DNA of 63,676 nucleotides, filler included, from Sphacelaria rigidula (Eukaryota): the NCBI GenBank assembly GCA_964200075.2. It is 4 parts of 4 records of this genome, joined end to end, with 100 filler letters (N's around TTAATTAATTAA, not from the genome) between each part and the next. Parts side by side here need not be neighbours in the genome. Positions count along the whole stretch, not along the records: positions 31,894 to 47,738 come from CAXNAA020001572.1; 3 more parts are not named here. One strand, 5' to 3'. This document shows, in pieces, positions 15,848 through 60,074 of the stretch. The position numbers and the translations under genes are program-made. Within the stretch, counting starts at the first letter, position 1. Every line of letters starts with the position of its first letter. The notes beneath the pieces were generated by a model. It was not told the origin of the DNA and did not search any database. It was given only the letters and a program-made list of their open reading frames with translations.

Positions 15848-15947
15848 NNNNNNNNNNNNNNNNNNNNNNNNNNNNNNNNNNNNNNNNNNNNTTAATTAAT
15901 TAANNNNNNNNNNNNNNNNNNNNNNNNNNNNNNNNNNNNNNNNNNNN
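15848..15947. other. Artificial contig spacer (N-run with TTAATTAATTAA)
   Basis: 100-nt block whose central 12-mer has stops in all six frames. The same block recurs twice. Confidence 0.97.
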
Positions 15948-26100: not shown

Positions 26101-29100
26101 CTCTTTGCTGTCTTGTCCATTTCAGCAGTCTTTCCACTCTTGCTTTAGGAGTATCGCGGCGTCGAATTGTACCGACGCAGCACCGACGTGTTGTGACGTA
26201 TTCGATATCATCTGACCCCAGCAGATCGCTGGAGGTACGGCTTCTCCAAGAATGTGTGTGTCGTTGTCGTACCACAAGAGTATGTGGTAGCTTCCCTCAT
26301 CAAACTCTCATTGGTTTCCCTTTCAGCCCTCTCTTGTCCGTCACCGCACGTGACCTGCAACGATTGTCTTAATACTACCGCTGGACATTCGAGGTAAACC
26401 TTGGCCTAGCTGGGTAGGGCACCAGGTCGGGATTGACTTAGATGGGATTCACGGTCATGCGCCAACACCGTATATGTTGTACTCTTAAGCTACTGCTCTA
26501 GAACCACCCTCTGAAAAAATTCCAGAGAACACTCGGGAACCACCCGCGGAATATCCCGCAGCTATTGTTTTGTGCAGAGCATCTTACTCGGAAGAAGCGG
26601 ATGGTTCTACGTTAGAATTGCACAACATACCGCACGGTCATTCCCGTCGCTGTTCATGGAAGGTCCGAACTCAGAGGGCTTTCCAGGCGTTTGATGCAGG
26701 ATCGTGCCTTCGTCAGCTTAACGAGTACGAGTTGTTGCGCAGCGCGTATTGTGTAGGAGGCGGCACGGACTTGTTCGGTCGGTCGTTAGCAATCTGCATC
26801 CCGTCCGTTGCTCCCGCCCTGTACTGAATAAGTCATACACTCAGCAGCATTCGCATGCATACCGGGGAGCACGATGTCCAGCGGAAGCAACCAGGCTCGA
26901 CTGGAGATGCCCACTCGCTTGCCTTAGTTTCAACGGTTGGCTGTCCTTTCTGCCCCGATACATGTTTCGAATACCTGTCCTTGCAGACAAATCGGCAGTC
27001 GAGCTCACCCCCTTGGATGATCATTTTGAGCCAAACACCGGCGCGGTTCATACTACCGCAGGCATGTCTGGAAGAGTACTGTTTGATTGATTGTCCGACA
27101 CTGACGTCTCCGTTCCGAATCCAATCATGGTCATAAAGTAAGCATATTCGAAGGAAACTGAAGAAAAATATAACAAGGTGACACAGACGCCGAGGTAAGA
27201 AGAACTAATGACCTCGAGGAGCCCCCGAACAGGGCCGTATCGGGGCGTTAGATTGGGGTACCGCACAAAAAGCAAGGTCTTGGAAGTACGTTGCGACTAA
27301 CCTATGTAGGGACCGCATTACCAATCGAAATCTCTCAATCTCCGGCTCTGCAGAGAGGAGGGGGCACAAACACCAATGCGACAGACGCGAAAATAATACA
27401 ACAAGGGAAGGAAAAAAGAAACCGAAGGTAGAAGACGGTACGTTCCCTTCAAACCGGCCGTTGGCAACTTAGGTCAAGTGGGTACAGTGAAAATATTGCC
27501 ATAGGGACAGCGTATATGATATCACAGGTACGCCACGGTTCGATGAATGCCCGCAGAACACACGCCGGCGTCTATCCAGCCAGGCGTTCAACGGTGCAGT
27601 GCTCGCTGAGGGCCAGGCGACAACAGTGGACTGCTGTGAGACATATTTTGTACGACATACCTGAAGTTTTCCTACAAATGGCCGAGCTGCCAGAGCCATG
27701 CAAACATGAGGGTACATTTGAAGGTTTATGACACAAACGACGTGTGACCCCTACCCATGAGAGGCAGAGTGCCGTAGTTTATATAATTTAGTGTGCGGAC
27801 TCTGTCCTAGCCAAGTGCGCTCATCCTATTGCCGGGGACAAGACGACGGCAGAAGCTGACTCACCTCGTGCCTCTCAAGTTGTCCCATTCTACCCATCCT
27901 CGCTTCACCTGTCTCACCGCTTGATCTCGTCTCCTGCCTTGCACGACGCACCTTTTATTCGACTTTCACGCCATACGACCTATCAAGAAAAAATTCAACA
28001 GCAACAACAAAACGCAGGTCGAGCTTCGAGGGAGGGCTGCCGTCATGGGCACCCGGCGCCGCTCACACCGCCGTGGTTTCCGGCCGTCGACCCAGCTTAG
28101 GTGGAGGAGCCCCACCGTGGGCTCCTACAGCCGCATCCACCACCCCCGCCGCCTCCGGTGATGACACGTCAAAGCGACGAAGGCCAAGCTTAGGAGGAGG
28201 ATTGCCGCCGTGGGCACCACAAACAGAAGATGCACCAGATGGTTCGGGAGATCGAGGGAGTGATCGAGGCAGGCGACCCAGCCTCGGGGGGGGCATGCCC
28301 GCCTGGGCCCCCAAGAGCGGCGACGGCGGTGCCAGAGCGTCGGGCAGTCCGGATAGCAAAAGCGACCGCAGGCCGAGTCTTGGCGGCGGTATGCCCGCAT
28401 GGGCGCCGAAGGTAGAGAAAAAAAAGGCGGTGATGGGTCAGGCGAGTGTCGAGGAATCGGAGAGGCCTCGGCGGAGTCAAGATGTGACCCTTGTGGTGCC
28501 CGACTGGCTTGCGGCAGTTGCGGACGGGGGGAGTCGAAGGGTAAGCGATTCATTAGGGAAGGATACGGATGATGTCGGTAATACGGTTCATTTCTTGGGG
28601 CCATATCAAGAATGGGTGGTAAGGCGTCAGGTGGGACAGTGCGGGATGAATGGTTCATGATATTCTGATGGATGGCAGCTCAAACTGTGTCGTGGCGATT
28701 CCAATGGAGCCAAATACGTCATGAGTCGTCAAAATTGCAAAAGAAGAAGTATCAGCTGCATGACGTCTTCCGTCGCAATTTCGGACGGTACTCTCGATGT
28801 TGCCTCATATTACAACAAGGTGAATTGAAGAAGATGCTCAAGGACGATCGGAAAAAAACAACACCTCTCAGATGACCACCAATGCGTAAGAGACCAAACA
28901 ACATGGCGCTTCGTTGATCCGTCGACCCTTCGATAACAGTGTTTGTCGAAACATGCGCCCGAATGGTAGTCGTAAAATACTCTCTTCACTCTGACCCGTC
29001 CCCGCCCCCCCGCCCACGGTGCGACTTTCTCGATCTCCTTGTGCTCCTCAAGAACAGGAGTTCCCCGCATCTACGAGCAACTCTGATGCGAATGACACTG

Positions 29101-31109
29101 AAGACGTCAACAGCAACAATGGCGATGGCCTCGATTGGCTCACCCAAGTCGCTTCCGGGTCGAAATCGAACAAACCGAAAGAGCCAGCGGCACCCGCCTC
29201 CCCGCGTGATCCGCCAGCAGCAAGCGGGGCAAATATAGCTAACGCTAGTTGCGAAGAAGATGGTATTATCACGCCGGGCGAACGTGTGGAAGGTCTGGAG
29301 TGGCTGTCGGCAGCAGCGTCGGTCAGGAGCAAGGGCGCAAAATCTACCGAACAGCGGAAGCGATCTTCTGCTCGCGCTGGTACAAAGATGAGTGCTCCAG
29401 GCGGATGGCTCCTTGCTGCTCTCGGCACATCCAACGCCCCTTCCAACGGCGTGTCGAGCGAAGCTGGCGAAGCTGGCGAAGCTGGCGAAGCAAGCACTGG
29501 CGCGCGCGATTCGAAACAATCCAATCCTCGACAGGGTAAAAAGACGTCTCCAAGAACAGCAGTCAGCAGAGCCACTGTGCCTAATAAGAGATCGAGCGCG
29601 AGCAAATCTGGTGGTTGGCTTGCCACCGCAGTTACACTCGGTCGCCTCGGAGTTCCTGGCGCCGAAAACGACGGGGAGGATGCCGATCGTCTCGAGGGTT
29701 CAAGTTCGCTTCTCACAGTGGAGATGGCAACACAAACGGAAGAGGACTGTGGAAAGGCCATCGAACCGGTCAGTCGTGATACCGGGGGAAAGCTGCCTCC
29801 ATGGGCTAAGCCCTGGACACCCCCTGTTGTCGAGGTCATGGAGGTTGCTCCTCCTTCCCATGGCAACACGAAGTCGTCAGTTGTGGATGAACGGCCGCAA
29901 GTGGACGCGAGCTCGAGTCGCGGGTTAGATTGGATGCATGAGGCCGTCAAAAATGCACGTGTAATGACACGCGAAGGTGATGGGTGAAGCATGAGTGTAG
30001 GGTCTTGCCGGGCCCGAATCTGAAGTGTCAACGGCAGCGGAAAATGTTACATAAATGCAGCGAACCTGCAACCCAGCGTCTACTCAGTCGTGCAGGGTGC
30101 CCGGTTCTTCGTCACACGTTCAAGTTTTAATAATTCTAGATGCTAACCTCACCGCTGTGGACAGCACGATTTTTCTACTTGCACTGATGTTCTCTCGCTC
30201 GACAGATTCGCCTCAGTACCTCTACTAAAGTTGTTGACGTACTCGACGTAACGGAAACGGCCCCTTCGTTTGCTGTAGGTGTGCACACAGATCGCGACAC
30301 GAGAAGTAGCGACGTGGATGACGATGCGAAGCGAGGAAAGAACGAAGGGCAGAGCTGGCTTCCTAGTGCAAACCCCGCAGAAGAAAACTCCTCCACCCCG
30401 GACGACATTCTCGCCGCTGCTCTAGCCGGGCGACCCATGACGACCGCTCGAATAGGCGGTCCGGGGATCATCTCAACATCAGAGGCGGCGCCCGACTGGC
30501 TAGCGGAAGCGTTGTCTGGTGAAAAAAAGAGTCGAGGTGCGAATCAATTGGTCTCAGCGTTGGCAACGAAAAGGCCTTCCCGAAAACAATCATCCGGGGG
30601 GGGGTGGCTAATGTCCGGCGCACTCATGCTGTCCACTGATGGTAGTAAGGATCAAGACATTGCGAAAGACGTGAAGAAGACCAAAGGTACGACCGATCGA
30701 AGACACCGAGATGACAAGGACGCAGGGGAAGCGGCCGCCCCGGGTATGACTCCAGACGTAAGGGGTGGTTGGCTGACCCTCGCAGCCACATCCGGGCATT
30801 TCGGCGTGCCAGGTGCAGATGATAGTGAAGGAGACCATTCCAGTGATTGCGAAGTTGAAGATGTGGGCATAACAGTTGAAACTCAGACAGACGAGAATAT
30901 CGGAGAAGCTGGCAAATCGGCCACCAGTAGTACAGCAGGAAAGTCCACGGGGAAGCTCCCTCCATGGGCCAAGCCATGGACACCTCCCCCGCTGCTGGAT
31001 AACGAGCGGCCGCTTGTTGTTGCGGAGGCGCCGCACGAGACAACCGCCGCGCCGGCGGCTGCAAGTATCGAATGGATAAACGGGACCGTGAACAAGTCAC
31101 CAACGCAAG
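17102..31109 (+). CDS. Large low-complexity modular repeat protein, partial (~1,900 aa). Exons: 17102-17627, 17820-18551, 19005-19212, 19630-19990, 20326-20755, 20940-21683, 22039-22207, 22890-23220, 28018-28540, 29058-29960 (or -29976), 30206 (or 30279)-31109
   Basis: All exons are AG/GT-bounded with compatible phases (2-0-0-1-2 cycle). Recurring motifs: RR[PS]SL[GS]GG[ALM]P[PA]WAP, G[LI]DWL, GGW, [EA]TQT[ED], LPPWAKPW[TV]PP, LSWMSKMKRRSS. No family recognised. Confidence 0.85.
23750..26570 (-). mobile_element. Old, internally deleted Ty1/Copia LTR retrotransposon in an intron
   Basis: Diverged direct repeats at ~23750-24070 and ~26245-26570. The minus strand has a Copia RNase H end (PITIRKDNEGGMK...SRRTRHTSVKHHTVRHTIKQGKTRVMYVDT...YADI) at ~24220-24410. 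Boundaries are approximate. Confidence 0.75.
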
Positions 31110-31793
31110 GTGTGATGGTTCACCACTGTGCGCTGATTGTGCTGCAGCTTCACTGAAGTCTTTGTACTGTATATATATTGCTGGGTAACACAATCGTGGA
31201 ACAAATGCAAATGCAACAAGAAGTAGGGTTGTTCGCGGGTTGGAATATCTAGAGCCCTCCCCCGTAGAGGAGGTATCAACGTTTGGGCATCCAATAATCG
31301 AAAACCGACGAAGTACTTTGGTATCTCGGTTGACGAGTGTTTCACGCATCCTTGCGTAGGACACGCGTCTTGTTCTTCTTTCAGTTGGTACGACTGGTTC
31401 GATTAAATGCCGACAAAACAAAATCATTGCCACATGAGCAACTCCAGCCGCCGTCATGATGCTTAGCCAGGCGCGCGACAGCTTGCGCTTATGGGTAACA
31501 GACCGACGGGGCTACCTGGCAATCTGCATCCAGTTCCGACGGTGCAGATTTTGAAGATGAACTAGCGTACTACGGCACTTACATCTTCATAAGCTTCGGG
31601 AGGTTGGGGTGTCAATGTGCGTGTCAGGGGTGATTTCCATCGACTGGTGCACCTCGAGATTCTGAAAAATAACTTCACGCACTCAAGGGCCGCAAATCGC
31701 TCTGGAAAACACCCCCCCCCCCCCACCCCCCCCACCCCCCCCCCCCCCCCCCCCCCCCCACCCCCCCCCCTCCCCTCCCCCCCTCCCCCCACC

Positions 31794-31893
31794 NNNNNNN
31801 NNNNNNNNNNNNNNNNNNNNNNNNNNNNNNNNNNNNNTTAATTAATTAANNNNNNNNNNNNNNNNNNNNNNNNNNNNNNNNNNNNNNNNNNNN
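31794..31893. other. Artificial contig spacer
   Basis: Same 100-nt N/TTAATTAATTAA block. Confidence 0.97.
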
Positions 31894-34674
31894 CGCTGAC
31901 GGCTTGCCTTACCCCTATTCTCAATCGTATCGAAGATTCTCAATCTCACGAAAACATTGTTCATTATGGAATGCGGTGTAACGAAATAATATATTGTTCT
32001 GCCAGCCATGTAATCAGATATTTCCATCCCCACTTGAGGCCCCCGGTGTAATCTTAGAGAACACCTAGCTTGAGATACCTCCAGTGATGAAGCGTCACGG
32101 TAAACAAAGTACCCGAGATGCATGTAGACTTATACCCGCATCTGCACATGGCGTCCAGTGGGGTGGGTGTCGATAATATGTACACGTGCCCATCATTCCC
32201 CACAAGTCCATGGCAGAAATGCATATCGGCGGGAACAGTGTTACCAGCGATGGATACGGATAGGGATTTTTTGAATTCCATATTATTGACTGGATATCGA
32301 CTCTAGCTCTTGTCTGCATTCTTCGGGTTTGCACATGTCGGACCCAGTCAGCAGTGCATTCCGACGCTTGATGCCTCATCCATCAGCACCACCCATTATG
32401 AAATGCCGTGAATACTGAAGAATATTTTGTTCTACCATCCTTGTAACCAGATATTTCCATCCCCACATGAGGCCGAGAAAACGTAGTTTGGATAAATGTA
32501 TATATATATACCATATAGCTCCACAAAAAAAAAAATGCCCTCACAACAACAAAAAACTCCCCGAGATGCAGACTCATATCTGCATCTGCACATGGGGAAC
32601 CGACAGGGTGGGTGCCGATAGTATACACATGTCCCTATCATCCCCCAGAGGTCCGTGGCCTTACATACGCAGGATCAACATGCAAGGCGTGTACCGGGGA
32701 GAGGTGGGCTAATCGCTCGAGACCGCGGACTGATCAAGCGGAAGAGGGGGGGGGTTGGAACTGGGACAAAATAGTGTGAAAGTGGGGTACAACACAAGGT
32801 GTGCTGATAACGTGGTAGCTCTTTAAACACAGGTTGCAATAAGTGATGCCCCTGCGACAAGTATACCTTCGATGGGGTAACACTGGATATCGACGAAGTC
32901 CCTTTGTTCTAGACGGACCGTTGTCCTCGGGAACGGCGATCAATGACTAACACATAATTCTGGTGCCTTGCCAATGCCATCAGTCACCATACGTCGATAT
33001 CAGTCCCAGTCCGCCTTGGTCATCATGAAAATAGACTATCGTGTCTGATTTTCTCGTATGTGGTCGTCTACCGCAGTGTGCATTGACGGAACCCTTTTAA
33101 ATTGTATTGGCATGGACCATGCATTTTGATGAAATAGTGCAAAATCCATCGCTACCGGCCATATCTATGGACATGTCAAACTCTTTTGTCCTCGGCCATG
33201 TATATCGATAGATCTCGATTCTATCAATACCAGAGCTATCGTTGCAGCAATTAACCATGGAAATATTCACGGGGACTGATGGGGATGCGAACCCCTCACG
33301 GAAATGTCTCGGCTCTTCCTGACAGTTTAAAACAAGTGACACACACTACCGCAGGCACACACACTGCCGCAGGCGCATTCCTCATGGCTGCACTGATGAT
33401 TGAGATGCCCACCCTGGGGGCGACTATAGACAAGGCCGAATTGAAACAGGGAGTACAACAACATGGTACAAAAACAGTACAAGTAGTACACTACAGTGCA
33501 CGAGCTGTGTGGTACAGTGCAACAGTGCATTCATGTCTCATTTCTCCCACCACCGCTTTCCTTCCCTTTTTCACTGGCGCTAAATGTGGTTGTATGGAGC
33601 CAAACAACAGGGTGAGCAGGATCTCTCTCTCTCCGTGCATTCCTACCTATTTCCCCCATTATCCGTGGGTAATACCGTGGAAAAAATCACAAACAATCTA
33701 GCTATGCACGTGAACCCTTGAGCCTCCACAGTGGGCAATCTGGGTACCGATCAGTTCGGTATTATCACCACACTACAGCTTCATGACGGCGCGAATATGA
33801 TGCACAGGCGAAAAGCCGCATGTGGCGGAAAAATGGACTTTACATAACGTGAAAACAGAAGAAAACGGGACGGTAATCATGGTGTAGTCTGTTCCGGTAC
33901 AGTCCCCAGAGCGTTTGAATACATACGCGACAGCATTTTCCCGTTCATATTCTCTCGGAATGCATCACACACGGACACATGACGCGACGAAAAACGTTAC
34001 TCCGGCTTGGACCTCTCCTCCCTTCTTGCTTCCCCCCTCCCGTTTACGTGCTGTATTTCATTTGCTCTTGTCGGGGACGATATGATGTTGAGGTGAGTCC
34101 ATCGATGAGTCGACTGGATCAGAGACAACCTAGTCGACCACGAGTGCGATTCAAGCGATTATATGTTGTGACCCCGCTTACCGGGGACATCCCACGTTCG
34201 GCACACCAGACGGCAATAAGTATTCTTGTAGATTTCAGGGGGAGTTGAAATAGTTGAGGAAAAACGTACTCATCTTGTAGTATATGTGTATGGCACCTGA
34301 ACACAAAGTTCGTTTCGCCGCACGATTTGCTCGTCTTGGTGATGTAGTGTTCAATCAAGTGTATCCACCTGAAACGGAGCGAACAACGAGGAGTCGTGTG
34401 TCCCCTTCCACGCGCGGGTGGCTCTCCAGTGACATTGGCGTAGTAAACGAACTCACGAGCGTCAGCTGCATGTACCAGAGATGATTGACCTCAGATTCCG
34501 TTCATTTCAAGGAGTGTCGTACCCAGGACATCACGCGGCGGCGCGGACTCCGCGACTTGGCCGGTGTATCTGTATGCGGCCTGTGCATCTTGGTAGGTTG
34601 GCCACGTCTTGTAGATCACTCGTAGCTAACGTGTCGTCTCTGCTCTGCTGGTCGCCTTTCCTCGACACCACAAG

Positions 34675-34746
34675 GATCCTGTCCGGGAACGATCTTACGA
34701 CCCTGCCGGTGGGGATCTTCGAGGGTCTCACGGCTCTGGAAACGCT
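34675..34746 (+). CDS. LRR exon 1: ILSGNDLTTLPVGIFEGLTALETL
   Basis: caag|72 nt|gtgagt, with CTAAC branch point upstream. Matches the 24-aa typical-class LRR consensus. Confidence 0.9.
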
Positions 34747-37700
34747 GTGAGTAGCAGTACAACACGCTTGTGGGTAGGTCGCGTTCCCGCATTGACTCAC
34801 CCTGCGCCAGGCAACAGAGTTCGTGAGGGTACTCTCGGTCTGCTGAGATATCGGTGCATTGCGCTCGATGTTGCGCTTCGGGTCAAAATCGTGACATCAG
34901 CAGTGGTTCAGCAGTGCTGGGCAGCGGATTACTATACACCAAGCGATACGACTAAAGAAGGCGGTAGGACCTGGTACTGTCATCTTGGCTCCATTGCTTC
35001 AATAGGCTGTAGAGGTGGTACGCAGTGGCACTCGCGAACCGATGGTCGTCAGATACCATCCTTGGACAGTCCTCGGGGCCATGAGGCCTTGATATGCTAC
35101 TTGTGGAACGCCAGGGACGGTTGCATTTTGTTTTGGAAGAAACCGCGTACCTTCGAGACCACCCCAAGGGTTCATTATTCGTCATGCCTCCCTCTCTCGT
35201 CTAGGCGTGGGGGCAACATCAACACTATCGAGGTGTATGTCGTGTAAAGTATGCCATTGTGTCTCAATACATGTTCAAAGGTGTGCGAGGTAGATGGAAA
35301 GATCAGGACGGGTACCCCAAACACCCGAGGTGTTTGGCTGTCGGGAACTGTTGGCCGAGGTGGCGTCGTCTTCGTATGTCGGGGTTCTTCTCCACCTTCG
35401 GGAACGCGCCCAAAAGTCGTTTTCCTCGTCACACGTTCCCTTGCACGCGCGGGTGGCTCTCCAGTGACATTGGCGTAGTATGGGAACTCACGAGCGTCAG
35501 CTGCATGTACTCGAGATGATTGACCTAAAAAAACGTTCATTTCCACGAGTGTCGTACCCAGGACATCACGCGGCGGCGCGGACTCCGCGACTTGGCCGGT
35601 GTATCCGCATGCGGCCTGTGCATCTTGGTAGGTTGGCCACGTCTCGTCGATCACTCCTATCTAACGTGTCGTCTCTGCTCTGCTCGTCGCTTCCCTCGAC
35701 ACCACGAGGTACTTGTCCGGGAACGATCTCACGACCCTTCCGGTGGGGATCTTCGAGGGTCTCACGGCTCTGGAAACGCTGTGAGTAGCAGTACGACACG
35801 CTCGTGGGTAGGTCGCGTTTCCGCATTAACCCCGCCCGCGCTGGGGAACAGAGTTCGTGAGAGTACTCTCGGTCTGCTGATATATTCGCGTACTCGCTGT
35901 CGCGTTTCAGGTCAATTTCGTGACATCAGCAGTGGTTCAGCAGTGCTGGGCAGCGGATCACCATACGCGAAGCGATACAAGTGTAGAAGTCGGTAGGGTT
36001 TGGTACTGTCATGTTGACGCCATTGCTTTAATGGGCTGTAGAGGTGGTACGCAGTGACACTCCCGAACCGATGGTCGTCAGATACCATCCTTGGACAGTC
36101 CTCGGGGCCATGAGACCCGTGTATGCTACTTGTGAAACGCCAGGGGTGGTTGCATTTCGTTCTCGAAAAAACCGCGTACCTTCGAGAACACCCCAAGGGT
36201 TCACTATTCGTCATGCCTTCCTCTCTCGTCTAGGCGTGGGGGCAACATCAACACTATCGAGGTGTCTGTCGTGTAAAGTATGCTATTATGTCTCAATACA
36301 TGGTCAAAGGTGTGCGAGGTAGATGGGAAGATCAGGACGGGTACCCCAAACACCCGAGGTGTTTTGCTGTCGGGAACTGTTGGCCGAGGTGGCGTCGTCT
36401 TCGTATGTGGGGGTTCTTTTCCACCTGGGAGAACGCGCCTAAAAGTCGTTTCTCTCGTCACATGTCTCCTTGCACCCGCGGGTGGCTCTCCAGTGACATT
36501 GGCGTAGTATGGGAACTCACGAGCGTCAGCTGTATGTACTAGAGATGATTGACCTCAAAATACGTTCATTTCCAGGAGTGTCGTACCCAGGACATCACGC
36601 GGCGGCGTGGACTCCGCGACTTCGCCGTTGTATCTGTATGCGGCCTGTGCATCTTGGTGGGTTGGCCACGTCTCGTAGATCACCCCCATCTAACGTGTCG
36701 TCTCCGCTCTGCTCGTCGCTTCCCTCGACACCTCAAGGTACCTGTCCGGGAACAATCTCACGACCCTTCCGGTGGGGATCTTCGAGGGTCTCACGGCTCT
36801 GGAACACCTGTGAGTAGCAGTACAACACGCTTGTGGGTAGGTCGCGTTTCCGCATTAAGCCCGCCCGCGCTGGGGAACAGAGTTCGTGAGAGTACTCTCG
36901 GTCTGCTGATATATTCGCGTACTCGCTGTCGCGTCTGGTCAATTTCGTGACATCAGCAGTGGTTCAGCAGTGCTGGGCAGTGGATCACCATACGCGAAGC
37001 GATACGACTGTAGGAGGCGATAGGACCTGGTACTGTCATGTTGGCCCCATTGCTCTAATGGGCTGTAGAGGTGGTACGCAGTGGCACTCGCGAACCGATG
37101 GTCGTCAGATACCATCCTTGGACAGTCCTCGTGGCCATGAGACCCGTGTATGCTACTTGTGATACGCCAGGGGCGGTTGCATTTTGTTCTCGAAAAACCG
37201 CGTACCTTCGAGACCACCCCAAGGGTTCATTATTCGTCATGCCTTCCTCTCTCGTCTAGGCGTGGGGGCAACATCAACACTATCGAGGTGTCTGTCGTGT
37301 AAAGTATGCCATATTGTTTCGTTACATGGTCAAAGGTGTGCGAGGTAGATGGGAAGATCAGCACGGGTACCCCAAACACCCGAGGTGTTCTGCTGTCGGG
37401 AACTGCTGGCCGAGGTGGCGTCGTGTTTGTTGTGGAGGTTCTTCTCCACCTGGGAGAACGCGCCTAAAAGTCGTTTTCCTCGTCACACGTTCCCTTGCAC
37501 GCGCGGGTGGCTCTCCAGTGACATTGGCGTAGTATGGGAACTCACGAGCGTCAGCTGTATGTACTAGAGGAGATAGTCCACAGATTCCGATTTTTTCCAC
37601 GAGTGTCGTACCCAGGACATCACGCGGCGGCGAGGACTCCGCGACTTCGCCGTTGTATCTGTATGCGGCCTGTGCATCTTGGTGGGTTGTCCACGCCGCG

Positions 37701-40700
37701 TAGATCACTCCTAGCTAACGTGTCGTCCCTGCTTTGCTCGTCGCCGTTTCGACACCACAAGGTACCTGTCCGGGAACAATCTCACCACCGTGCAGGTTAG
37801 GATCTTCGAGGGTCTCACGGCTCTGGAAACGCTGTGAGTAGCAGTACAACACGCCTGTGGGTAGGTCGCGGTTTCGCATTAAGCCCGCCCGTGCTAGGCA
37901 ACAGAGTTCGTGAGGGTACTCTCGGTCTGCTGAGATATCGGTGCATCGCACTCGCTGTCGCGTCTCGGGACAATATCGTGACATCAGCAGTGGTTCAGCA
38001 GTGCTGGGCAGCGGATCACCATACGCAAAGCGATACGACTGTAGAAGGCGATAGTACTTGGTACTGTCATGTTGGTCCCATTGCTTTAATGGGCTGTAGA
38101 GGTGGCACGCAGTGGCACTCGCGAACCGATGGTCGTCAGATACCATCCTTGGACAGTCCTCGGGGCCATGAGACCCGTTTAGACTACTTGTGGAACACGA
38201 CGGGCGGTTGCGTTTTGTTTTCGAAGAAACCGCGTACCTTCGAGAACACCCCAAGGGTTCACTATTCGTCATGCCTTCCTCTCTCGTCTAGGCGTGGGGG
38301 CAACATCAACACTATCGAGGTGTCTGTCGTGTAAAGTATGCCGAATTGTTTCGATACACGGTCCGAGGGGTGCGAGGTAGATTGAAAAATCAGCACGGGT
38401 ACCCCAAACACCCGAGGTGTTTTGCTGTCGGAAACTGTTGGCCGAGGTGGCGTCGTGTTTGTGGTGGACGTTCTTCTCCACCTTTGAGAACGCGCCTAAC
38501 AGTCGTTTTTCTCGTCACATGTCCCCTTGCACCCGCGGGTGGCTCTCCAGTGACATTGGCGTAGTATGGGAACTCACGAGCGTCAGCTGTATGTACTAAA
38601 GATGATTGACCACAGATTCCGTTTTTTTTCAGGTGTGTCGTACCCAGGATATCGCGCGGCGGCGCGGACTCCGCGACTTCGCCGGTGTAGCTGTATGCGG
38701 CCTGTGCATCTTGGTGGGTTGACCACGCCTCGTAGATCACTCCCAGCTAACGTGTCGTCTCTGCTCTGCTCGTCGCCTTCCCTCGACACCACAAGGTCCT
38801 TGTCCTACAACGAACTCACGACCCTGCCGGTGGGGATCTTCGAGGGTCTCACGGCTCTGGAACACCTGTGAGTAGCAGTACAACATGCTTGTGGGTAGGT
38901 CGCATTTCCGCATTGATTCGGCCCGCTCTAGGCAACAGAGTTCGTGAGGGTACTCTCGGTCTGCTGAGATATCGGTGCATCGCACTCGATGTTGCGTCTC
39001 TGGACAATATCGTGACATCAGCAGTGGTTCAGCAGTGCTGGGCAGTGGATCACCATACGCGAAGCGATACGACTATAGAAGGCGGCAGGACCTGGTACTG
39101 TCATGTTGACGCCATTGCTCTAATGGGCTGTAGAGGCGGTACGCAGTGACACTCCCGAACCGATGGTCGTCAGATACCATCCTTGGACAGTCCTCGGGGC
39201 CATGAGGCCTTGATATGCTACTTGTGAAACGCAAGGGCGGTTGCATTTTGTTCTCGAAGAAACCGCGTACCTTCGAGACCACCCCAAGGGTTCACTATTC
39301 GTCATGCCTTCCTCTCTCGTCTAGGCGTGGGGGCAACATCAACACTATCGAGGTGTCTGTCGTGTAAAGTATGCCATTGTGTCCCGAAACATGGTCAAAG
39401 GTGTGCGAGGTAGATGGGAAGATCAGGACGGGTACTCCAAACACCCGAGGTGTTTTGCTGTCGGGAACTGCTGACCGAGGTGATGTCGTGTTTGTTGTGG
39501 AGGTTCTTCTCCACCTTCGAGAACGCGCCGAGATGTCATTCACCTAGTCACATGTTCCCTTGCACGCGCGGGTGGCTCTCCAGTGACATTGGCGTTGCAT
39601 GGGAACTCACGAGCGTCAGCTGTATGCACTAAAGATGATAGTCCACAGATTCCGTTGTTTTCCAGGAATGTCGTACCCAGGACATCACGCGGCGGCGAGG
39701 ACTCCGCGACTTAGCCGATGTATCCGTATGCCGCCTGTGCATCTTGGTAGGTTGGCCACGTCTCGTAGATCACTCCTAGCTAACGTGTCGTCTCCGCTTT
39801 GCTCGTCGCCTTCCCTCGACGCCACAAGGTCCTTGTCCTACAACGAACTCACGACCCTGCCGGTGGGGATCTTCGAGGGTCTCACGGCTCTGGAACACCT
39901 GTGAGTAGCAGTACGACACGCTTGTGGGTAGGTCGCGTTTCCGCGGTAACCCCGCCCGCGCAGGGAACAGAGATCGTGAGGGTACTCTCGGTCTGCTGAG
40001 ATATCGGTGCCTATCGTGTAAAGGATGTGATTGTGGCCCGATACACGGTCGAAGGTGTGCGAGGTAAATTGAAAAATCAGCACGGGTACCTCAAACACCG
40101 GAGGTGTTTTGCTGTCGGGAACTGTTGGCCGAGGTGGCGTCGTGATTGTTGTGGACGTTCTTCTCCACCTTCGAGAACGCGCCGAAAAGTCGTTTCTCTC
40201 GTCACATGTTCCCTCGCACGCGCGGGTGGCTCTCCAGTGACACTGGCGTAGTATGGGAACTCACGAGCGTCAGCTGTATGTACTAGAGATGATTGACCAC
40301 AGATTCCGTTTGTTTCCAGGAGCGTCAAGAGTTCATTATCCGTCATGCCTTCCTCTCTCGTCTAGGCGTGGGGGCAACATCAACACTACCGAGGTGTCTG
40401 TTGTGTAAAGTATGCTATTATGTCTCGATACGTGGTCCGAGGTGTGCGAGGAAAATTGGAAGATCAGGACGGGTACCCCAAACACCCGAGGTGTTTTGCT
40501 GTCGATAACTGTTGGCCGAGGTGGCGTCGTCTTCGTATGTGGAGGTTCTTCTCCACCTGGGAGAACGCGCCGAGATGTCGTTTTTCTCGTCACATGTCCC
40601 CTTTCACGCGCGGGTGGCTCTCCAGTGACATTGGCGTAGTGTGGCAACTCACGAGCGTCAGCTGTATGTACTAGGGATGATTGACCACAGATTCCGTTGA

Positions 40701-43700
40701 TTTCAAGGAGTGTCGTACTCAGGACATATATGCGTAGACTTCGCGACTTGGCCGGTGTATCCGGATGCGGCCTGTGCATCTTGGTGGGTTGGCCACGCCT
40801 CGTAGACCACTTCCAGCTAACGTGTCGTCTCTGTTCTCTCGTCGCCTTCCCTCGACACCTCAAGGTACCTGTTCGAGAACAATCTCACGACCCTGCCGGT
40901 GGGGATCTTCGAGGGTCTCACGGCTCTGGAATGGCTGTGAGTAGCAGTACAACACCCTTGTGGGTAGGTCGCGTTTCCGCAGTGACTCGGCCCGCGTTAG
41001 GGAACAGAGTTCGTGAGGGTACTCTCGGTCTGCTGAGATATCGGTGCATAGCACTCGCCTAGTGTCTCGGGACAAATTCGTGACATCAGCAGTGGTTCAG
41101 CAGTGCTGGGCAGTGGATCACCATACGCGAAGCGATACGGCTGTAGGAGGCGGTAGGGCTTGGTACTGTCATGTTGACGCCATTGCTCTTATGGGATGTA
41201 GAGGTGGTACGCAGTGGCACTCGCGAACCGATGGTCGTGGGATACCATCCTTGGACAGTTCTCGGGGCCATGAGACCCGTGTATGCTACTTGTGATACGC
41301 CAGGGGCGGTTGCATTTTGTTCTCGAAGAAACCGCGTACCTTCGAGACCACCCCAAGGGTTCACTATTCGTCATGCCTTCCTCTCTCGTCTAGGCGTGGG
41401 GGCAACATCAACACTATCGATGTGTCTGTCGTGTAAAGTATGTGATTGTGTCCCGAAACATGGTCAAAGGTGTGCGAGGTAGATTAAGATCAAGACGGGT
41501 ACCCCAAACACCCGAGGTGTTGTGCTGTCGGGAACTGTTGGCCGAGGTGGCGTCGTCTTCGTATGTGAAGGTTCTTCTCGACCTCCGAGAACGCCCCGGG
41601 ATGAAGTGCTCCTTGTACGTACTGAAGTTGATCCACAACAGTCCGTTGATTTGAAGGAAAATGTACTGAGGTGATCAGGCGGCGACGCAGATCTCTCAAC
41701 TTGGTCGGTTTTTGGAATGCGGCCTGTGCATGGTGGGTTGGCCACGCCTTACAGGTCACCCCTAGCTCACATATCGTCTCTGCTCCGCACGTTGGCTTGC
41801 CTCGACCCTCTAAGGAGCTTTTCTTGGAACTTGAGTATCACGCCTCCAGGGATGTTCGAAGGTGTTTGGTTCTGCGAGTTATCGGCTCATAGACGCTGTG
41901 AACGACTTGGCGCAATCGCGGTGCCCCTGTATTCAGGTCTAACCGGCGTCAAGCTCTGTAAATCCTGGTACATATCGGGAACAATCGCGTTCGAATAACT
42001 GTTGCTACTTTTAATGAGGATTTCTAGTACAACGTGTGTTTCAAAACGACGCGGATGTGTTCGTGTAGCTACACTGAGGGGTCCGCGACCATGAGATTTG
42101 CTCGTGATATGGGTTCCATATAGGGATACCAGAAGCGTCAACACAACTGAGCAAAGTTTGAAATTGAAGGTGCAGAAGCCGGCCGCCCCGGTGGCTCAGG
42201 TAGCATCCGCGAAAATCTTTTGACGGTTGGCACTGAAGTGTGAATTTCATGAAACAAAACGCCCCATAATCCCCGCCTCCGCTATCGTAGAATTTTTCTA
42301 TCTCACCATCCTACCGGTTGGGATCTTCGATGGTCTCACGGCTCTAAAAATCCTGTGATCAGCAGCAAGACACTTTTGTGGTTAAGATGCTTTCCTGCAT
42401 TGGCTCAGCCTGCGGTAAAAATCTGAATCCATGGGAATATTATTGATCTGCTCATGTCGGTGCATTGGATCTGGTGCAATTTGCGAGAGTCCATGTTGAT
42501 ATCGACTAGGTGGTACAGGAATGCTGGGGAGTGTACCACTACGTTAGAAGCGCAGTTGTATTAGTCGGTAGGTCTTGTTGCTGTCCTATTCTCCCCATTG
42601 CTCTTGAATGCGGTGTGTAGTACACGTGCAACGGGTAAGTGATGCAATTCGAATGCTCTATGGTTCTGAGAATGATTGAACGGCGGTTCCGTTGACTGAG
42701 AATGGTCACCCTACCCAAAGTTCAACAAGTAGTTCGAGTCGGACACAGAATACTCACCGTGTAGAGCAAAACCACATCGCAGTATGTTGTCGTCGTCAAA
42801 GCTTATTCCCGCCCGCCAGGTAGCTAGAAGTTTAAAAAGAGGACGCTGCTCTCAATATCGTTGTATCATCCTCGTCGTTGCTTACAATGCAAATAGTTTG
42901 GGATTACGCGAGGCGTCTTTTCCACGGCATCAGATCACACCCATACGTGCCCCGTTCTTGCCGTTTTTACGCTGGCGAACTTCTCCCGGGGTCTGACGTA
43001 TAGGTGGCTCGATGGGAACTCACTGGAGTGTATGCCCGCCATCCCAACAACGTGAGCAACGCAAAATGATGGTCGATCTGTCGTCTCGAAATATTTTGTG
43101 TAACAAGTGGAAAATTTTGCACGTGTTTGGGAATCGGTGCAGCGCCACATATTCAGGTAGTCAATTATCGTGCCGAATACGGTTCGCTGACGCTCGCGAT
43201 ATCGAACGAATGCGATGTCCAGCAGCATTGCTTCTCGAAATGTTGGCCCAAATGTGACTTGCCGATCAAGGAAAGTTTCGACCTGCTTTTGAGCTCTCAC
43301 GTTGGCCATAACGTCGGGACTCACGATGAATTTATCCCTAGCATGCGTGAGCCCGTAGCAGAACAAGGAATGCACTTTATCTTCGATTGAATCTCGCCGT
43401 GTGCACAACAAAGGCCGGCTTTTTTCGGCATACTGTTTGCTTTGTGCCTTGCCCATTTTTCATCAATGCACTGCATTGTCGATCGGACACCACCTTTTCC
43501 TCAGACTGTACTGCTACTACTGCTTACTTCCGGTGACACACTTCGCAGGATGGACGCCAACGGGCTCGAAGTTGATGCGTACGGCGACGAATGTGGTGAG
43601 TGATTCTTGAGAAGGTGTACGGATGAACCTAAGCCTAACCCTTGAGCTCCGTAAGGACTCATCGGTATTGGGTTGCTTCCCCCGCAATCTGCCCACGCAG

Positions 43701-45079
43701 GTATCGAGTCGAATATGTCGCTCTTTCGATAAAGGTGTCAACTTGCAGTCTGTATCGGATTTCGATCTGCGCTCCATTCCCCGAATGGCGTCACGCCGCG
43801 CCTCTTTCGTGGTGAGCGGTGCACTGGTCCAGCGAAACGTTGCACGGCGGTACCCCTTATCCAGATAGTATCAATCATTTGCTCCCGCGTGCATTTTCAG
43901 GTCGCTCGGAAGGGCGGTCAGCTGTACCACGCCTCAAACATACACGTGTTACTGGTCGAAACGGTCCACCATGGATCTCGAGATTGATTCAGTTGCTTCA
44001 TGTAATCCGATAATGTGAAAGAGCCTGCAGCGCGGGATGAGTCCTACGGTGGTTGTTCCGTACTACCCACGGCTCTGTACCGTGTATGAAAAGCTTATAT
44101 AAAAAGCTCTCCAAAAGTCCGGTTCGCGCACGTCATAATCGGGCCAAAAGTGTATGTAGGCATGCTTTATTTGAGCGAGATGTGCTGGTACTGTTCTTCC
44201 CAGGCAACGCTAGTGTTCGTCCCTACACCGAGTAATAAAATGCATGTTACAATTCCAAGCGATGCCCTCACCGAGTAATAACATGCATGCTTCGAACGCT
44301 TCCAGGGTGTTCTGTTCCGGACGTGACCGATAACGTGTGCGGCCAAAAAACGTGCACTTCCGGACCCGAAGGATACACCTGTGGTGAGACAACGGCCCTG
44401 ACTGCGTCAAATATGATGATTCGGATTGACCCCCCTCCATCAGGGGCTTCAGTATTGGGTGAACTGACACTGTTCGATACTCGAAGTTTCACAGCTGACA
44501 CAAGTTGCCGCTCCTTGACATTTTTGGACGTAGTCGCAGCTCTCGACTTCCTTGTGCCCTCGGACGCGAGCTGCCACGAGTGTTGTTTTATTGTTCGAGT
44601 TGTGAGCCACTGATGCCGCTGTTTTGATGGCTTGTGAAAGCGGCGTGATCTGCATAAAGCACATGCACCGCGGTGTTGTAGACGGAGACAGCTAATTTCG
44701 ATAGTGTCCCGTACGTGCTAACCGTTTGGTTCCATACCCAGACGGATGTTGTTTACAAAGACGGCCTCGAGCAGGAGGGCTTCAGAAGTCTCATTTGTTT
44801 TGCCCACTCCTTCGGTGCACCCCTCCGAGCCACCGAACGAGGTGGTTCATCGCCTTTATTGCGTTGGTGTCCAGCTCATCTGGCTGGGGTTGGGTAAAGC
44901 ATAAGTTGACTTGGAAATGACCCGCGAAAACCCGCCGACCTGGTAACTCGCTGCATCGGCCACACTTGCGCCTGTGCCAGCACCCACGCCCACCGTTGAA
45001 GCGGAAGAGCCTGCATCGGCCTCCTCAGCACCCGAATCCGCGCCAGAACCTGCGCTGTCACCCAACTCAAGCGCAGAAG
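34675..45079 (+). CDS. Leucine-rich-repeat receptor-like protein, partial: 7 LRR exons, linker exon, Cys-rich exon, Pro/Ser/Ala stalk exon
   Basis: Phase-2 LRR exons splice in frame to 43549-43595 (phase 2 to 1), 44306-44383 (1 to 1) and 44981-45079 (1 to 1). The N-terminus and the region past the 45165-45174 gap are unresolved. Confidence 0.75.
35709..35780 (+). CDS. LRR exon 2: YLSGNDLTTLPVGIFEGLTALETL
   Basis: cgag|72 nt|gtgagt. Confidence 0.88.
36738..36809 (+). CDS. LRR exon 3: YLSGNNLTTLPVGIFEGLTALEHL
   Basis: caag|72 nt|gtgagt. Confidence 0.9.
37762..37833 (+). CDS. LRR exon 4: YLSGNNLTTVQVRIFEGLTALETL
   Basis: caag|72 nt|gtgagt. LPVG is changed to VQVR. Confidence 0.85.
38796..38867 (+). 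CDS. LRR exon 5: SLSYNELTTLPVGIFEGLTALEHL
   Basis: caag|72 nt|gtgagt. Confidence 0.9.
39829..39900 (+). CDS. LRR exon 6: SLSYNELTTLPVGIFEGLTALEHL (nucleotide-identical to exon 5)
   Basis: caag|72 nt|gtgagt. Confidence 0.9.
40865..40936 (+). CDS. LRR exon 7: YLFENNLTTLPVGIFEGLTALEWL
   Basis: caag|72 nt|gtgagt. Confidence 0.9.
41815..41865 (+). pseudogene. Decayed LRR exon (SFSWNLSITPPGMFEG), 3'-truncated
   Basis: Follows a diverged copy of the intron unit and taag acceptor. The 3' half and the gtgagt donor are lost. Confidence 0.65.
42179..42248 (+). mobile_element. Truncated head of the tRNA-derived SINE
   Basis: CCGGCCGCCCCGGTGGCTCAGG...TGACGGTTGG matches the start of the 3191 copy. Confidence 0.6.
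42301..42354 (+). pseudogene. Decayed LRR exon (LTILPVGIFDGLTALKIL), 5'-truncated
   Basis: LRR 3' part followed by gtgatc and a diverged intron-unit start. The nearest AG would give an out-of-frame 64-nt exon. Confidence 0.7.
43549..43595 (+). CDS. Linker exon of the LRR gene (MDANGLEVDAYGDEC)
   Basis: cgcag|47 nt|gtgagt, converting phase 2 to phase 1 as the model requires. Confidence 0.7.
44306..44383 (+). CDS. Cys-rich cap-like exon (GCSVPDVTDNVCGQKTCTSGPEGYTC)
   Basis: tccag|78 nt|gtgaga, phase 1-1. Confidence 0.75.
44981..45079 (+). CDS. Pro/Ser/Ala/Glu-rich stalk exon (APTPTVEAEEPASASSAPESAPEPALSPNSSAE)
   Basis: gccag|99 nt|gtaagc, phase 1-1. Confidence 0.7.
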
Positions 45080-45115
45080 GTAAGCGTGCTGACGTGCCGC
45101 TTTCGGTGTTGAGGT

Positions 45116-45146
<31 letters not shown>

Positions 45147-47468
45147 TACCCCCGCCCACCACCANNNNNNNNNNAAAGTGAACGGTGCGGACGGGCCCTT
45201 TTGGTGTTGGGGTTCCCCCCCCCCCCCCCCCCCGGAGAAATGCTCCGTCTCGAAACGGATGCGTGGTCAATGGTCAAACGACCAAGGCAAGCATTCAAAG
45301 AGTACGCTCTCATCTCCCCACCCCCGTAAAAACCACAGCGTCGAGAAGATCCCCGGGTTTTGTCCAAAACTGAATGGTCAGACCGCGGCCAATATTTCCC
45401 TGCACTGGGTGTACTCACGGTTATGCATGCCATAGTCATCAGGCGCACTCAAACTATAGCCCTGCTGGCAATTTTACAAACAAAAACTAGCAACAAGCAA
45501 GACATCTTCGCTGAAAAAGCCATGGTCTAAGTATTTGTAGGAGCAAGCATTCAAGGGGGAAATGTATAGGGGGAAGCAACTAGACCCCGCGTGTAGATGC
45601 TGAACACTAACCCTAACACTTGAACCAAGTACGACAAGAGATGGCGTGGTATATGCTTGAACCAAGTACGAACTATATCGGCACGTATCCTTTAAACTTG
45701 CATTTACGGTGAGGCATACCATTTTGTGTGAGTACGTAGCTGCATAACTGTATATACGCTATCATCACGCCCAGCCCTTTAAATCTCGTCGCCGCCATGT
45801 AAACAATGTCTAGCGGTGGTACCACGAAATGTACCGTCAAGTTTGATCCTTGTGCGCTGCAATGCGTGGGAAGACCGCGTGCTTAAAGGACCGTATCGTA
45901 GTTCAAAACACCCTAGGATCGATGTCTTTCAAACCCAATCGAGTCAGTCCCTACAGGAACTACGCCCCTGACCCCAACCCCAATACTAAAGCTAACGATA
46001 GGGGCGTTCAAACTCTGATGCGGTCCCCTAAGCACACGGTCCTCCCACGCATTACGTGCTCTCTACTGAGAGGATAACCGTAGTTGCCATCGATATACGC
46101 CTGTGCTCCCTCATATTGGTGTCCGTGCGTAAGGACGTCGTTCTCTCGCATGCGGGAGGCGAAACGAAGTTTTTTTCGCCTGACGCGCAATTCCAGGCTT
46201 CACATCTGATCGTTTCACCCGGTCAGGATACTGTCTCGGATATGTATAAATAAACCCAAGCGTACGCATGTTATCTCATACGCCTTATAAGGCTGAGAAG
46301 GGATTCAGGGCGAGGGAGCAGTGCTTGTAGGGCCTACTGGCGAAGCGATGCGACACCTTCTCTCGAGCCCGTGAGTAATCATTCAGCACCCATACAGCTA
46401 CACTGTTCATCATGTCCGTACCTGCAGCGACCCGAACATTGACAAATGCTTGTGTATCAATTGCCAGACCCTACTCTGGTTGTAGAATCAGCAGCGATAC
46501 GGCGTACGCGCGTGAACTCCGTAGCGAAGACTTCGCTTACTGTAGTGGGTGACTGAAATAGGAGTTTACACGCCACCATCCTTTGGAGTGAACTTATACC
46601 CGCAGCTCTTCTGTGAAACAGCAGCGAAGGCTTCTTTGCTTACTCACACCCCATTTTCCCACCATTACTGCTGCTACTCGTGGGCAGCAGCGCTTCCAGT
46701 AATGAGCTAGAAGTGTCTACTCCTTTCGCCGCAATATGTCGTGGTAACTGCACAGCTGCGCTTCTCTTATCCGCATTCTACTCGTGCAGTTGCAGCAGCT
46801 GCCGCGACGGTAAATCCGACGAATGTTCCCTCTTTCGCGAAGGCATCATACCGCCAACAACGAAGTCATCGCGACCGGCGTCCAACGACGACCCGAGCAC
46901 AGACGGGGAGCTAGACGTGGGCGACATGTTGGAGCGTATGAGAAAGTGCCTGCCGCACGACAGGACGTCTTTGATCCGTGTTGGCCCTTTAAGGAACTCG
47001 TGGCGCGGCATCGAGCCGTTCTCGTCGCACACAAGGCACCGTCCGCATGGGATATGAGAAATTGTAGTGCGAGTGTGGATGTTAGTACGTTCGTCAATTG
47101 ACATCCACTTCCCTTGCATAGCTATGGGAGGGGTGTATTGGATGAGCATTCATCAGTCCAGATGGATTTTATAAAAATCGAAAGTAGTTGAGGGAATGGC
47201 GGTTGACAGCCAGCGACCTATAATCTCGGCCACCGAGGAGAACCCGCCGGGGCCGGCAGCCAATTACTCGCGTGTATTTCTCCGTCTTGCATTATGCTTT
47301 GCTGGAGAATGTACTTGTAGTGCAGCCCCGTGATCACGTTGATATATCATTGATCAAGCGGGTCGATTTATGGAGTCAATTCCCGACATTAATGTTGGTG
47401 TAGTCATTGGTTTCCATATTCTTACTTTGTGAGCGCGCAGACAAGGCGAAAAGGGCTCGAAATACATG

Positions 47469-47738: not shown

Positions 47739-47838
47739 NNNNNNNNNNNNNNNNNNNNNNNNNNNNNNNNNNNNNNNNNNNNTTAATTAATTAANNNNNN
47801 NNNNNNNNNNNNNNNNNNNNNNNNNNNNNNNNNNNNNN
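47739..47838. other. Artificial contig spacer
   Basis: Same 100-nt N/TTAATTAATTAA block. Confidence 0.97.
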
Positions 47839-59900: not shown

Positions 59901-60074
59901 TTCGACCCCCTCAAGCTATCCGCCGACGGTATCAACGAGAAGTGGGCGCTTTCAGAGCTCAAGCACGGGCGCCTGGCTATGTGGGCAATGGCTGCGATCC
60001 TCGTCCAACAGCTTCTTGTGCCGGACAAGTCGCCGCTTGAGCTTGCATACGAGTGGTCCACCCAGTTCAACTGA
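56913..60074 (+). CDS. Light-harvesting complex (fucoxanthin-chlorophyll a/c binding, Lhcr-like) protein, 215 aa. Exons: 56913-57014, 57874-57993, 59239-59409, 59820-60074
   Basis: Four exons with three phase-0 GT-AG introns. Signal peptide plus VNA-FVAP (ASAFAP-type) motif, two GFDPL motifs, and helices [12 protein letters not shown] and [12 protein letters not shown]. The Lhcr subfamily call is by eye. Confidence 0.95.

Follow-up and report, generated by a model that had tools for sequence, protein, structure and literature searches.

A tandem array of 72-nt leucine-rich-repeat exons in the brown alga Sphacelaria rigidula, with divergence concentrated at concave-face codons

The array and described LRR exon systems

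Two types of 72-nt exon for leucine-rich repeats (LRRs) have been described in Ectocarpus: type I in ROCO genes, and type II in seven LRR-kinases and eight other loci (Zambounis et al. 2012, PMC3341825). In the available sections of that paper, the type II exon encodes the consensus xLxxNxLxxxxxGxxxxxxxLxxL with an offset boundary and is under positive selection at sites 3 and 23; neither exon shuffling nor inactivated exons are reported there for type II, and the LRR-kinases are marked in its Table 1 as without predicted microRNA regulation. The ROCO case was extended to three more brown algae, according to the accessible part of a later study (Front Plant Sci 2024, PMC11378527), and the accessible part of the Phaeoexplorer preprint (10.1101/2024.02.19.579948) treats LRR receptor kinases as a brown-algal family, the term 'exon shuffling' being absent from it. 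A search of the full-text literature for 'type II LRR' with Ectocarpus returned Zambounis et al. 2012 only. Here, we describe a tandem array of seven exons of the type II pattern in Sphacelaria rigidula (GenBank assembly GCA_964200075.2), located in a 63,676-nt stretch of DNA (the window). The array is probably the ligand-binding part of a brown-algal LRR receptor-like gene whose exon-plus-intron units were tandem-duplicated, and whose concave-face codons were diversified by selection.

The window is composed of four unlinked contigs (15,847, 15,846, 15,845 and at least 15,838 bp) joined by linkers of the form N44-TTAATTAATTAA-N44 at 15848-15947, 31794-31893 and 47739-47838. The contigs become shorter from one to the next, as would be expected of unplaced scaffolds in order of size. 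The array is located on the contig at 31894-47738 (CAXNAA020001572.1), which has an N10 gap at 45165-45174. Gene neighbourhood across the linkers is meaningless because the contigs are unlinked, and neighbouring genes were therefore rejected as context.

An exact 27-nt core, which an earlier note on this DNA had described as identical in all seven exons, is indeed present in seven plus-strand copies (starts 34715, 35749, 36778, 37802, 38836, 39869 and 40905; period ~1030 bp); at 42323 there is one more copy, the eighth, which has 3 mismatches, and 0 copies are expected from a control of 100 shuffled sequences. Each exact copy is embedded in a 72-nt exon that is preceded by AG as acceptor and followed by GTGAGTAGCAGT as donor (7/7), the splice sites AG/GTGAGTAG being conserved across the seven exons. 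All seven are in phase 1, with the terminal Leu codon split CT|G. One exon represents one 24-residue LRR: the motif L21-x-x-L24-x-L2-x-x-N5-x-L7 recurs at a 24-residue period in 7/7 exons, and the intron falls inside L-x-x-L|x-L-x-x-N, as had been noted. The array exons span 34675-40936 and agree with the type II definition in length and register (7/7) and in all fixed residues (6/7; exon 4 has Arg at the Gly position).

The repeats vary at positions 1 (I/Y/S), 3-4 (SG/SY/FE), 6 (D/N/E) and 23 (T/H/W; ACG/CAC/TGG), so that the variant lists given earlier are correct, and outside positions 1, 3, 4, 6 and 23 only in exon 4, where LPVG is replaced by VQVR. The exon peptides are YLSGND..ET, YLSGNN..EH and YLFENN..EW for exons 2, 3 and 7, ILSGNDLTTLPVGIFEGLTALET for exon 1 and YLSGNNLTTVQVR..ET for exon 4, and SLSYNE..EH for both exon 5 and exon 6, whose DNA is identical. 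The features of the array are as follows:

34399..34674, plus strand: partial leading unit, the 3' ~275 nt of the unit intron up to the exon 1 acceptor (blastn of unit 2: unit positions 755-1029, 90.6%)
34675..34746, plus strand: LRR exon 1, 72 nt, phase 1, ILSGNDLTTLPVGIFEGLTALET(L)
35709..35780, plus strand: LRR exon 2, YLSGNDLTTLPVGIFEGLTALET(L); a joint at 35780 in one spliced contig
36738..36809, plus strand: LRR exon 3, YLSGNNLTTLPVGIFEGLTALEH(L)
37762..37833, plus strand: LRR exon 4, YLSGNNLTTVQVRIFEGLTALET(L); L10V, P11Q, G13R and two synonymous changes within ~20 nt
38796..38867, plus strand: LRR exon 5, SLSYNELTTLPVGIFEGLTALEH(L)
39829..39900, plus strand: LRR exon 6, identical to exon 5 in 72/72 nt; the rearranged intron 39901-40864 lies behind it
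40865..40936, plus strand: LRR exon 7, the last intact LRR exon, YLFENNLTTLPVGIFEGLTALEW(L)
41815..41897, plus strand: decayed LRR exon relic, SFSWNLSITPPGMFEGVWFCEL..., inside the long last intron; unit homology at 41614-41810 (71%)
42283..42354, plus strand: decayed LRR exon relic, IVEFFYLTILPVGIFDGLTALKIL; acceptor AG absent, Asn lost, core with 3 mismatches

The repeat unit is the ~1.03-kb exon plus intron, in tandem, with 85-93% identity between units including introns; unit 6 (U6), whose intron is rearranged, is 71-75% identical to the others. The U6 intron (39901-40864) has unit positions 1-177, then 553-874, then 486-1029, i.e. it lacks positions 178-485 and carries part of 486-874 twice, as left by unequal recombination within the intron. 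The 5' edge of the array falls mid-intron (34399), and its 3' edge is formed by two decayed units with relic exons. In the relic at 41815..41897 the next GT follows after 83 nt, so that the frame would break, and the relic at 42283..42354 scores 45.5 bits with nhmmer vs 77-84 for intact exons. No further exon copies were found on either strand of the window, with no minus-strand nhmmer match at E < 1.

Contigs of four sequencing runs were also compared: X1, X6 and X7, which a tool guessed to be RNA (none is on record as RNA), and X2, which is DNA-like. The sequence just upstream of the array (33900-34275) is high-copy, with an X2 bin depth of 482 vs 62-82 for unique contigs, and is represented in X1, X6 and X7 by short pieces, 90% alike, of which both ends are loose. 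This upstream sequence probably derives from a dispersed repeat or from part of a transposon.

As in the accessible description of the Ectocarpus type II exons, the Sphacelaria exons are 72 nt long, one per 24-residue repeat, in the same register and with a strand-offset boundary, and the selected sites 3 and 23 vary; the nearest named homologue of the array, P0005, is an Ectocarpus LRR plus kinase protein. Unlike in that description, the Sphacelaria array has 71-93%-identical units, a rearranged intron and two relic exons, its sites 1, 4 and 6 also vary, and a kinase domain is not seen on its contig. With the type I ROCO exons, to the extent of the accessible texts (PMC3341825, PMC11378527), the array shares the 72-nt exon per repeat, intragenic tandem duplication, intronic relic exons and, probably, positive selection on the concave face. 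It differs from them in register (type I being GxxPxxLxxxxxLxxLxLxxNxLx; exons of the two types therefore cannot mix) and in having no LRR exons on the opposite strand (no minus-strand nhmmer match at E < 1).

The interpretation in the earlier note finds partial support and is, in essence, already published for the type II exon class, and no new mechanism is revealed. The addition is modest: a type II array with recent tandem exon-plus-intron duplication, inter-unit recombination, intron rearrangement and relic exons, previously seen for type I only. The published signature of exon-per-repeat LRR receptors with a hypervariable concave face is independently reproduced in a second, distantly related brown alga. 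The duplication, recombination and decay of exons in the array make type II LRR receptor genes candidates for rapid-repertoire evolution, as was proposed for the ROCO genes.

Divergence at concave-face codons

For the analysis of divergence, the codons were split a priori by the LRR consensus L21-x22-x23-L24-x1-L2-x3-x4-N5-x6-L7 into six x codons and 18 framework codons; the sample comprises seven exon copies, i.e. 21 non-independent pairs, of recombining units. Across all 24 codons, non-synonymous (pN, 0.119) and synonymous (pS, 0.118) divergence both equal the intron diversity. The six x codons have a pN of 0.368 and a pS of 0.128 (pN/pS 2.87), and the 18 framework codons a pN of 0.023 and a pS of 0.116 (pN/pS 0.20), with pS (~0.12) near the nucleotide diversity (pi) of the introns; the framework codons have been under purifying selection after duplication. 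Variation is concentrated at the x positions and not random, as the earlier note had it: 5/6 x positions are variable in amino acid vs 3/18 other positions, all three of the latter in exon 4 (Fisher p = 0.007).

The nucleotide diversity of the x codons is 0.32 (0.30 without U6), that of the introns 0.157 (0.111 without U6). When the same 18-column layout was slid through the intron, the x-codon value was reached in 0.57% of 884 placements (0.45% without U6), and random draws of 18 columns reached it in 0.06% (0.02% without U6). By minimum allele-count changes, there are 14 changes in 18 nt at x codons vs 8 in 51 nt elsewhere. Both sites 3 (S/F) and 23 (T/H/W) vary; the seven recombining copies are too few for per-site tests. 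In 29 repeats of the homologues P0005, P0002 and P0004 (see below), entropy is highest at positions 23, 1, 3, 4, 6 and 22 (2.3-3.6 bits vs <=1.8 at the unconstrained remainder).

The excess divergence at x codons fits diversifying selection, with moderate support. Of this proposal of the earlier note, the part that stands is the x-codon pN/pS of 2.87, a divergence 2-3-fold above that of the introns, and the precedent in Ectocarpus; what holds it back is the sample of seven recombining mosaics. Several points indeed weigh against selection. There are only seven copies with 21 non-independent pairs, and inter-unit recombination violates tree-based reasoning; the sliding-pattern control is autocorrelated; exon 4 has three framework replacements; and the 5' part of the exon does not stand out when it is treated simply as a block of 40 nt, since 9-51% of intron windows are equally diverse.

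The small, non-independent sample and the non-significant 40-nt block test, as well as clustered multi-nucleotide differences that occur in introns too (e.g. +173 to +183, common to units 2 and 3), would also be compatible with relaxed constraint only, i.e. with x positions that drift beside a purified framework, the excess being noise of a small sample, or old differences that by chance were not homogenised. We consider this unlikely: drift cannot lift pN (0.368) over pS (0.128) and over intron pi (0.11-0.16), the changes are unevenly placed (14 in 18 nt at x codons vs 8 in 51 nt elsewhere), and an independent PAML result, published in the accessible part of Zambounis et al. 2012 (PMC3341825), points in the same direction as ours.

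The synonymous identity of the 27-nt core, which the earlier note had recorded, is not special, since similarity between units is as high in the introns as in the exons: invariant runs in the introns extend over 37 columns in all seven units and over up to 46 in units 1-5, compared with 29 columns for the exon core. Fully invariant 27-column windows make up 1.3-5% of the intron windows, and the chance that all ~7 neutral (synonymous) sites of the core are unchanged is 0.02-0.23, depending on the units counted. Recent duplication of the units, or their homogenisation, explains why the core is invariant. A microRNA target was considered as another possible reason, but the LRR-kinases are marked as without predicted microRNA regulation in Zambounis et al. 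2012. An Rfam scan of the array contig gave 0 matches at gathering thresholds, and the conserved blocks in the introns thus correspond to no RNA family known so far.

The splits at parsimony-informative sites are mutually incompatible along the entire unit, and the units are therefore recombinant mosaics. The two ends of the exon also assort independently: H23 is found in exons 3, 5 and 6, the 5' block is common to exons 5 and 6 only.

This independent assortment, and codon swaps that alter 2-3 nt together (ACG/CAC/TGG, GGG/TAC/GAG), would be expected if exon ends had been imported as cassettes from diverged paralogous LRR loci by short-tract gene conversion, with or without selection. Paralogues with other x residues do occur in the spliced contigs (a loose end), and intergenic recombination was traced for type I exons, according to the available sections of Zambounis et al. 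2012 (PMC3341825). Such import is nevertheless doubtful, since the tracts should bring synonymous and intron differences with them, yet at and around x codons pS is at the background level (0.128), and the directly flanking intron is not more diverged.

Under the preferred explanation, a tandem-duplicated exon array diversified by selection, the gene would belong to the brown-algal LRR receptor kinase family, each repeat being one type II LRR exon with its boundaries inside the beta-strand. Unequal crossing-over with intronic breakpoints would recently have duplicated the ~1.03-kb units in tandem and so enlarged the array; recombination or gene conversion would continue to pass sequence between the units, holding introns, framework codons and the 27-nt core alike. 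The solvent-exposed concave-face codons 23, 1, 3, 4 and 6 are ~3-fold more diverged than neutral sites; such divergence against a homogenising background would mean that selection favours new residues or preserves old differences, and so diversifies the binding surface.

Homologues, cap exons and exon junctions

When one exon was used as query in a word search, 10 of 40 candidate proteins had E <= 1; among these 10, P0005 (Ectocarpus sp. 6, 1155 aa) is the sole one named by organism. As read from its sequence, P0005 comprises a signal peptide, an N-terminal cap, LRRs of the LTTLPxGIFEGLTALExL type, a Cys-rich cap, a Pro/Thr/Ala-rich stalk and a transmembrane segment; Pfam matches are LRR_8 (153 bits) and PK_Tyr_Ser-Thr (186 bits), with no Roc. 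For P0004, LRR_8 scores 219 bits. The array exons have the features of LRR solenoid members; a single array exon matches LRR_8 at E = 0.0033 (17.6 bits, under the 27-bit cut-off), as expected for 24 aa. The metagenome-derived proteins P0001, P0003 and P0006-P0010 (560-1850 aa) have LRRs 63-78% identical to the array exon, several together with cadherin-type Pfam domains. A degenerate FEGLTAL[ED] scan of metagenomes yielded 120 loci with single matches each, the best at 19 bits with nhmmer (vs 77-84 for intact exons), i.e. chance hits.

A ROCO identity of the array was rejected in view of its type II register and of P0005, which has a kinase and no Roc. Among the plus-strand open reading frames (ORFs) of the contig no Roc-like one stood out in a check by eye only, and no Roc-COR was found.

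A brown-algal LRR receptor kinase has, beside its LRRs, a signal peptide with an N-terminal cap, a Cys-rich C-terminal cap, a transmembrane segment and a cytoplasmic kinase; of these parts, the contig has the LRRs and the Cys-rich cap, both of which align to P0005. With tblastn, the P0005 cap matches at ~42993-43040, 43556-43597 and 44305-44385, and the following features were assigned:

43004..43051, plus strand: C-terminal cap exon A, (L)WLDGNSLECMPAIPTT; tblastn to P0005 and P0002, AG/GT model in frame, joints 34746/35780>43013 and 43052>43551 (X1, X7)
43549..43595, plus strand: cap exon B, MDANGLEVDAYGDEC; tblastn, AG/GT model, spliced contigs
44306..44383, plus strand: cap exon C, GCSVPDVTDNVCGQKTCTSGPEGYTCG; 70% identity to P0005 residues 381-407 (E = 1e-7), the 3' GT donor being a candidate only
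44947..45164, plus strand: Pro/Ala/Ser-rich open frame from the ORF list, possible extracellular stalk; interrupted by the 10-N gap at 45165-45174

The AG/GT model 40865-40936 > 43004-43051 > 43549-43595 > 44306-44383 has an open, stop-free frame from the last LRR exon into the cap. The open frame at 44947-45164 is possibly a stalk like that of P0005 (residues ~410-480), by composition and with no significant alignment. The gene may continue into a kinase tail and function as a receptor.

Several side observations were made around these exons. No family was found by Pfam for the ORF at 44239-44610, and a 174-aa open frame on the minus strand (42938-43459), which overlaps cap exon A and has no Pfam family, is probably spurious. 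When the last ~90 nt of the intron are translated in frame (35616-35708, also 37715-37761; ..DTxR before the exon), the result is ~40-50% alike to residues 169-194 of P0005. The gene model of P0005 in Ectocarpus sp. 6 appears to read through an intron end; the likeness could reflect an intron 3' end conserved between the genera, or the composition of the pyrimidine tract.

The predicted junctions are those used by the gene family in spliced contigs. In X1, X6 and X7, joints lead from an LRR exon end (34746 or 35780) to the cap exon (~43013), from 43052 to 43551 and from 43594 to 44305; the last of these, GT..AG in X1 with a short side of 23 nt, supports cap exon C. Joints from LRR exon to LRR exon were found as well (35782 to 40868, and a 72-nt periodic one from 40938 back to 40870). 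Splice joints of this type were not seen in the X2 contigs.

In an AlphaFold2 single-sequence model of P0004, the LRR part has pLDDT values of 65-94 in 10-residue blocks, with strands at 355-359, 379-383 etc. (24-residue period) and repeat starts at 357, 381 etc. The modelled strands thus correspond to repeat positions 23-24-1-2-3, which places the exon junction at codon 24 mid-strand, when the junction is mapped onto P0004 via the register of the array and apart from the exons of the P0004 gene itself; the claim that each beta-strand is contributed by two exons is borne out to the extent of this model. The fold matches of the model include the solved ectodomains of LRRTM2, Toll, LGR4, hagfish VLR, LINGO-1 and Nogo receptor.

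In the VLR system, donor cassettes that cannot be spliced flank an incomplete germline gene, and diversity results when they are copied into this gene in somatic cells. The array is like the VLR in its 24-residue LRR modules, its concave-face diversity and its junctions inside modules, which give chimeric repeats, and hagfish VLR (2o6q) is at rank 11 among the fold matches of the P0004 model (E = 2.3e-12). Unlike in the VLR, the array exons are all in-line, spliceable (7/7 intact splice sites) and germline. No evidence for somatic assembly of the array was obtained from the Logan contigs, which cannot show rare somatic variants.

With the LRRs of plant receptor kinases, receptor-like proteins (RLPs) and NLRs, which are under diversifying selection at xxLxLxx, the array shares hypervariable exposed beta-strand residues in a conserved framework, and the presumed receptor-kinase design. 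It differs in the strict one-exon-per-repeat structure and the 24-residue LxxLPxGxF repeat, with a modelled fold nearest to animal ectodomains; the accessible part of the Phaeoexplorer preprint (10.1101/2024.02.19.579948) also treats the brown-algal receptor kinases as their own family.

The assignment to a complete, expressed receptor gene meets with objections of its own. N-terminal (signal-peptide/LRRNT) or transmembrane/kinase exons were not detected on the 15.8-kb contig (no kinase or N-terminal match at E <= 1 with tblastn; in a further search all such matches had E > 0.3 and were noise), and the locus could be a fragment. The RNA label of the runs with spliced contigs is a tool's guess. 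These contigs are mostly 90-95% alike to the array and have other letters at the cap acceptor, and may therefore come from paralogues; the X1 contigs without other letters (records 1 and 3) are unspliced, one being intronic and one crossing the exon 7 donor. None of the run contigs extends across the whole array, and the spliced contigs do not give exon number or order per transcript.

A 5'- and 3'-truncated, decaying pseudogene remnant on a small unplaced contig, with variation that has no present function, would account for the contig's having no detectable N-terminal or kinase exon, for the start of the array mid-intron beside a high-copy repeat (X2 depth 482 vs 62-82), for the two relic exons and for the atypical exon 4. 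We regard it as improbable, since ten consecutive exons retain frame and splice sites, and the framework pN/pS of 0.20 indicates purifying selection after duplication; moreover, the contig is just 15.8 kb long and gapped, and the missing exons may lie outside it.

As the exon boundary splits the beta-strand, any change of exon neighbours would yield chimeric concave-face strands, and new exon pairings may thus create new binding surfaces, as the earlier note had supposed. No transcript or haplotype with changed exon order was seen among the run contigs, none of which covers the full array. That the array is an active combinatorial diversifier of a brown-algal receptor (through unequal crossing-over in introns, exon skipping or somatic recombination), beyond being a record of past duplication, appears highly improbable; if true, the LRR-kinase class, for which Zambounis et al. 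observed no shuffling, would come within their hypothesis of 'brown-algal adaptive-like immunity'. The array offers a compact, testable locus for copy-number and splice-isoform variation.

The chance that the array is an assembly artefact, i.e. mis-assembled copies of one or two real exons, is negligible: the contig is small and unplaced and the repeat period exceeds a short read, but the units are 7-15% different from one another, have indels of their own and include one rearranged intron, and are therefore not collapsed or duplicated copies, and X2 contigs (X2 may be the source sample) cover 30/30 bins, with 105/181 pieces >=99% alike.

Other sequences in the window

Poly-C tracts are found at 31712-31790, 15948-15970, 45117-45157 and 45215-45235, i.e. 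at contig ends and beside the N10 gap, and are probably assembly break points.

The remaining observations concern contigs unlinked to the array. On the first contig, an ORF on the minus strand (12714-13223) contains the motif YADDAGI, which we take to be a typical reverse transcriptase motif; the ORF is probably a retroelement fragment. The second contig contains long plus-strand frames (16596-31153) of low complexity, rich in Ala, Pro and Ser, with recurring GG(L/I)(D/S)WL(T/A)(Q/A)A and RRPSLGGG(L/M)P(P/A)WAP. On the fourth contig, at 59191-60071 (plus strand), two exon-like ORFs encode a light-harvesting protein (Chloroa_b-bind, PF00504) with ELKHGR[VL]AM motifs, which is 98% identical to a Sphacelaria rigidula protein and 89-90% identical to Ectocarpus and Scytosiphon proteins.

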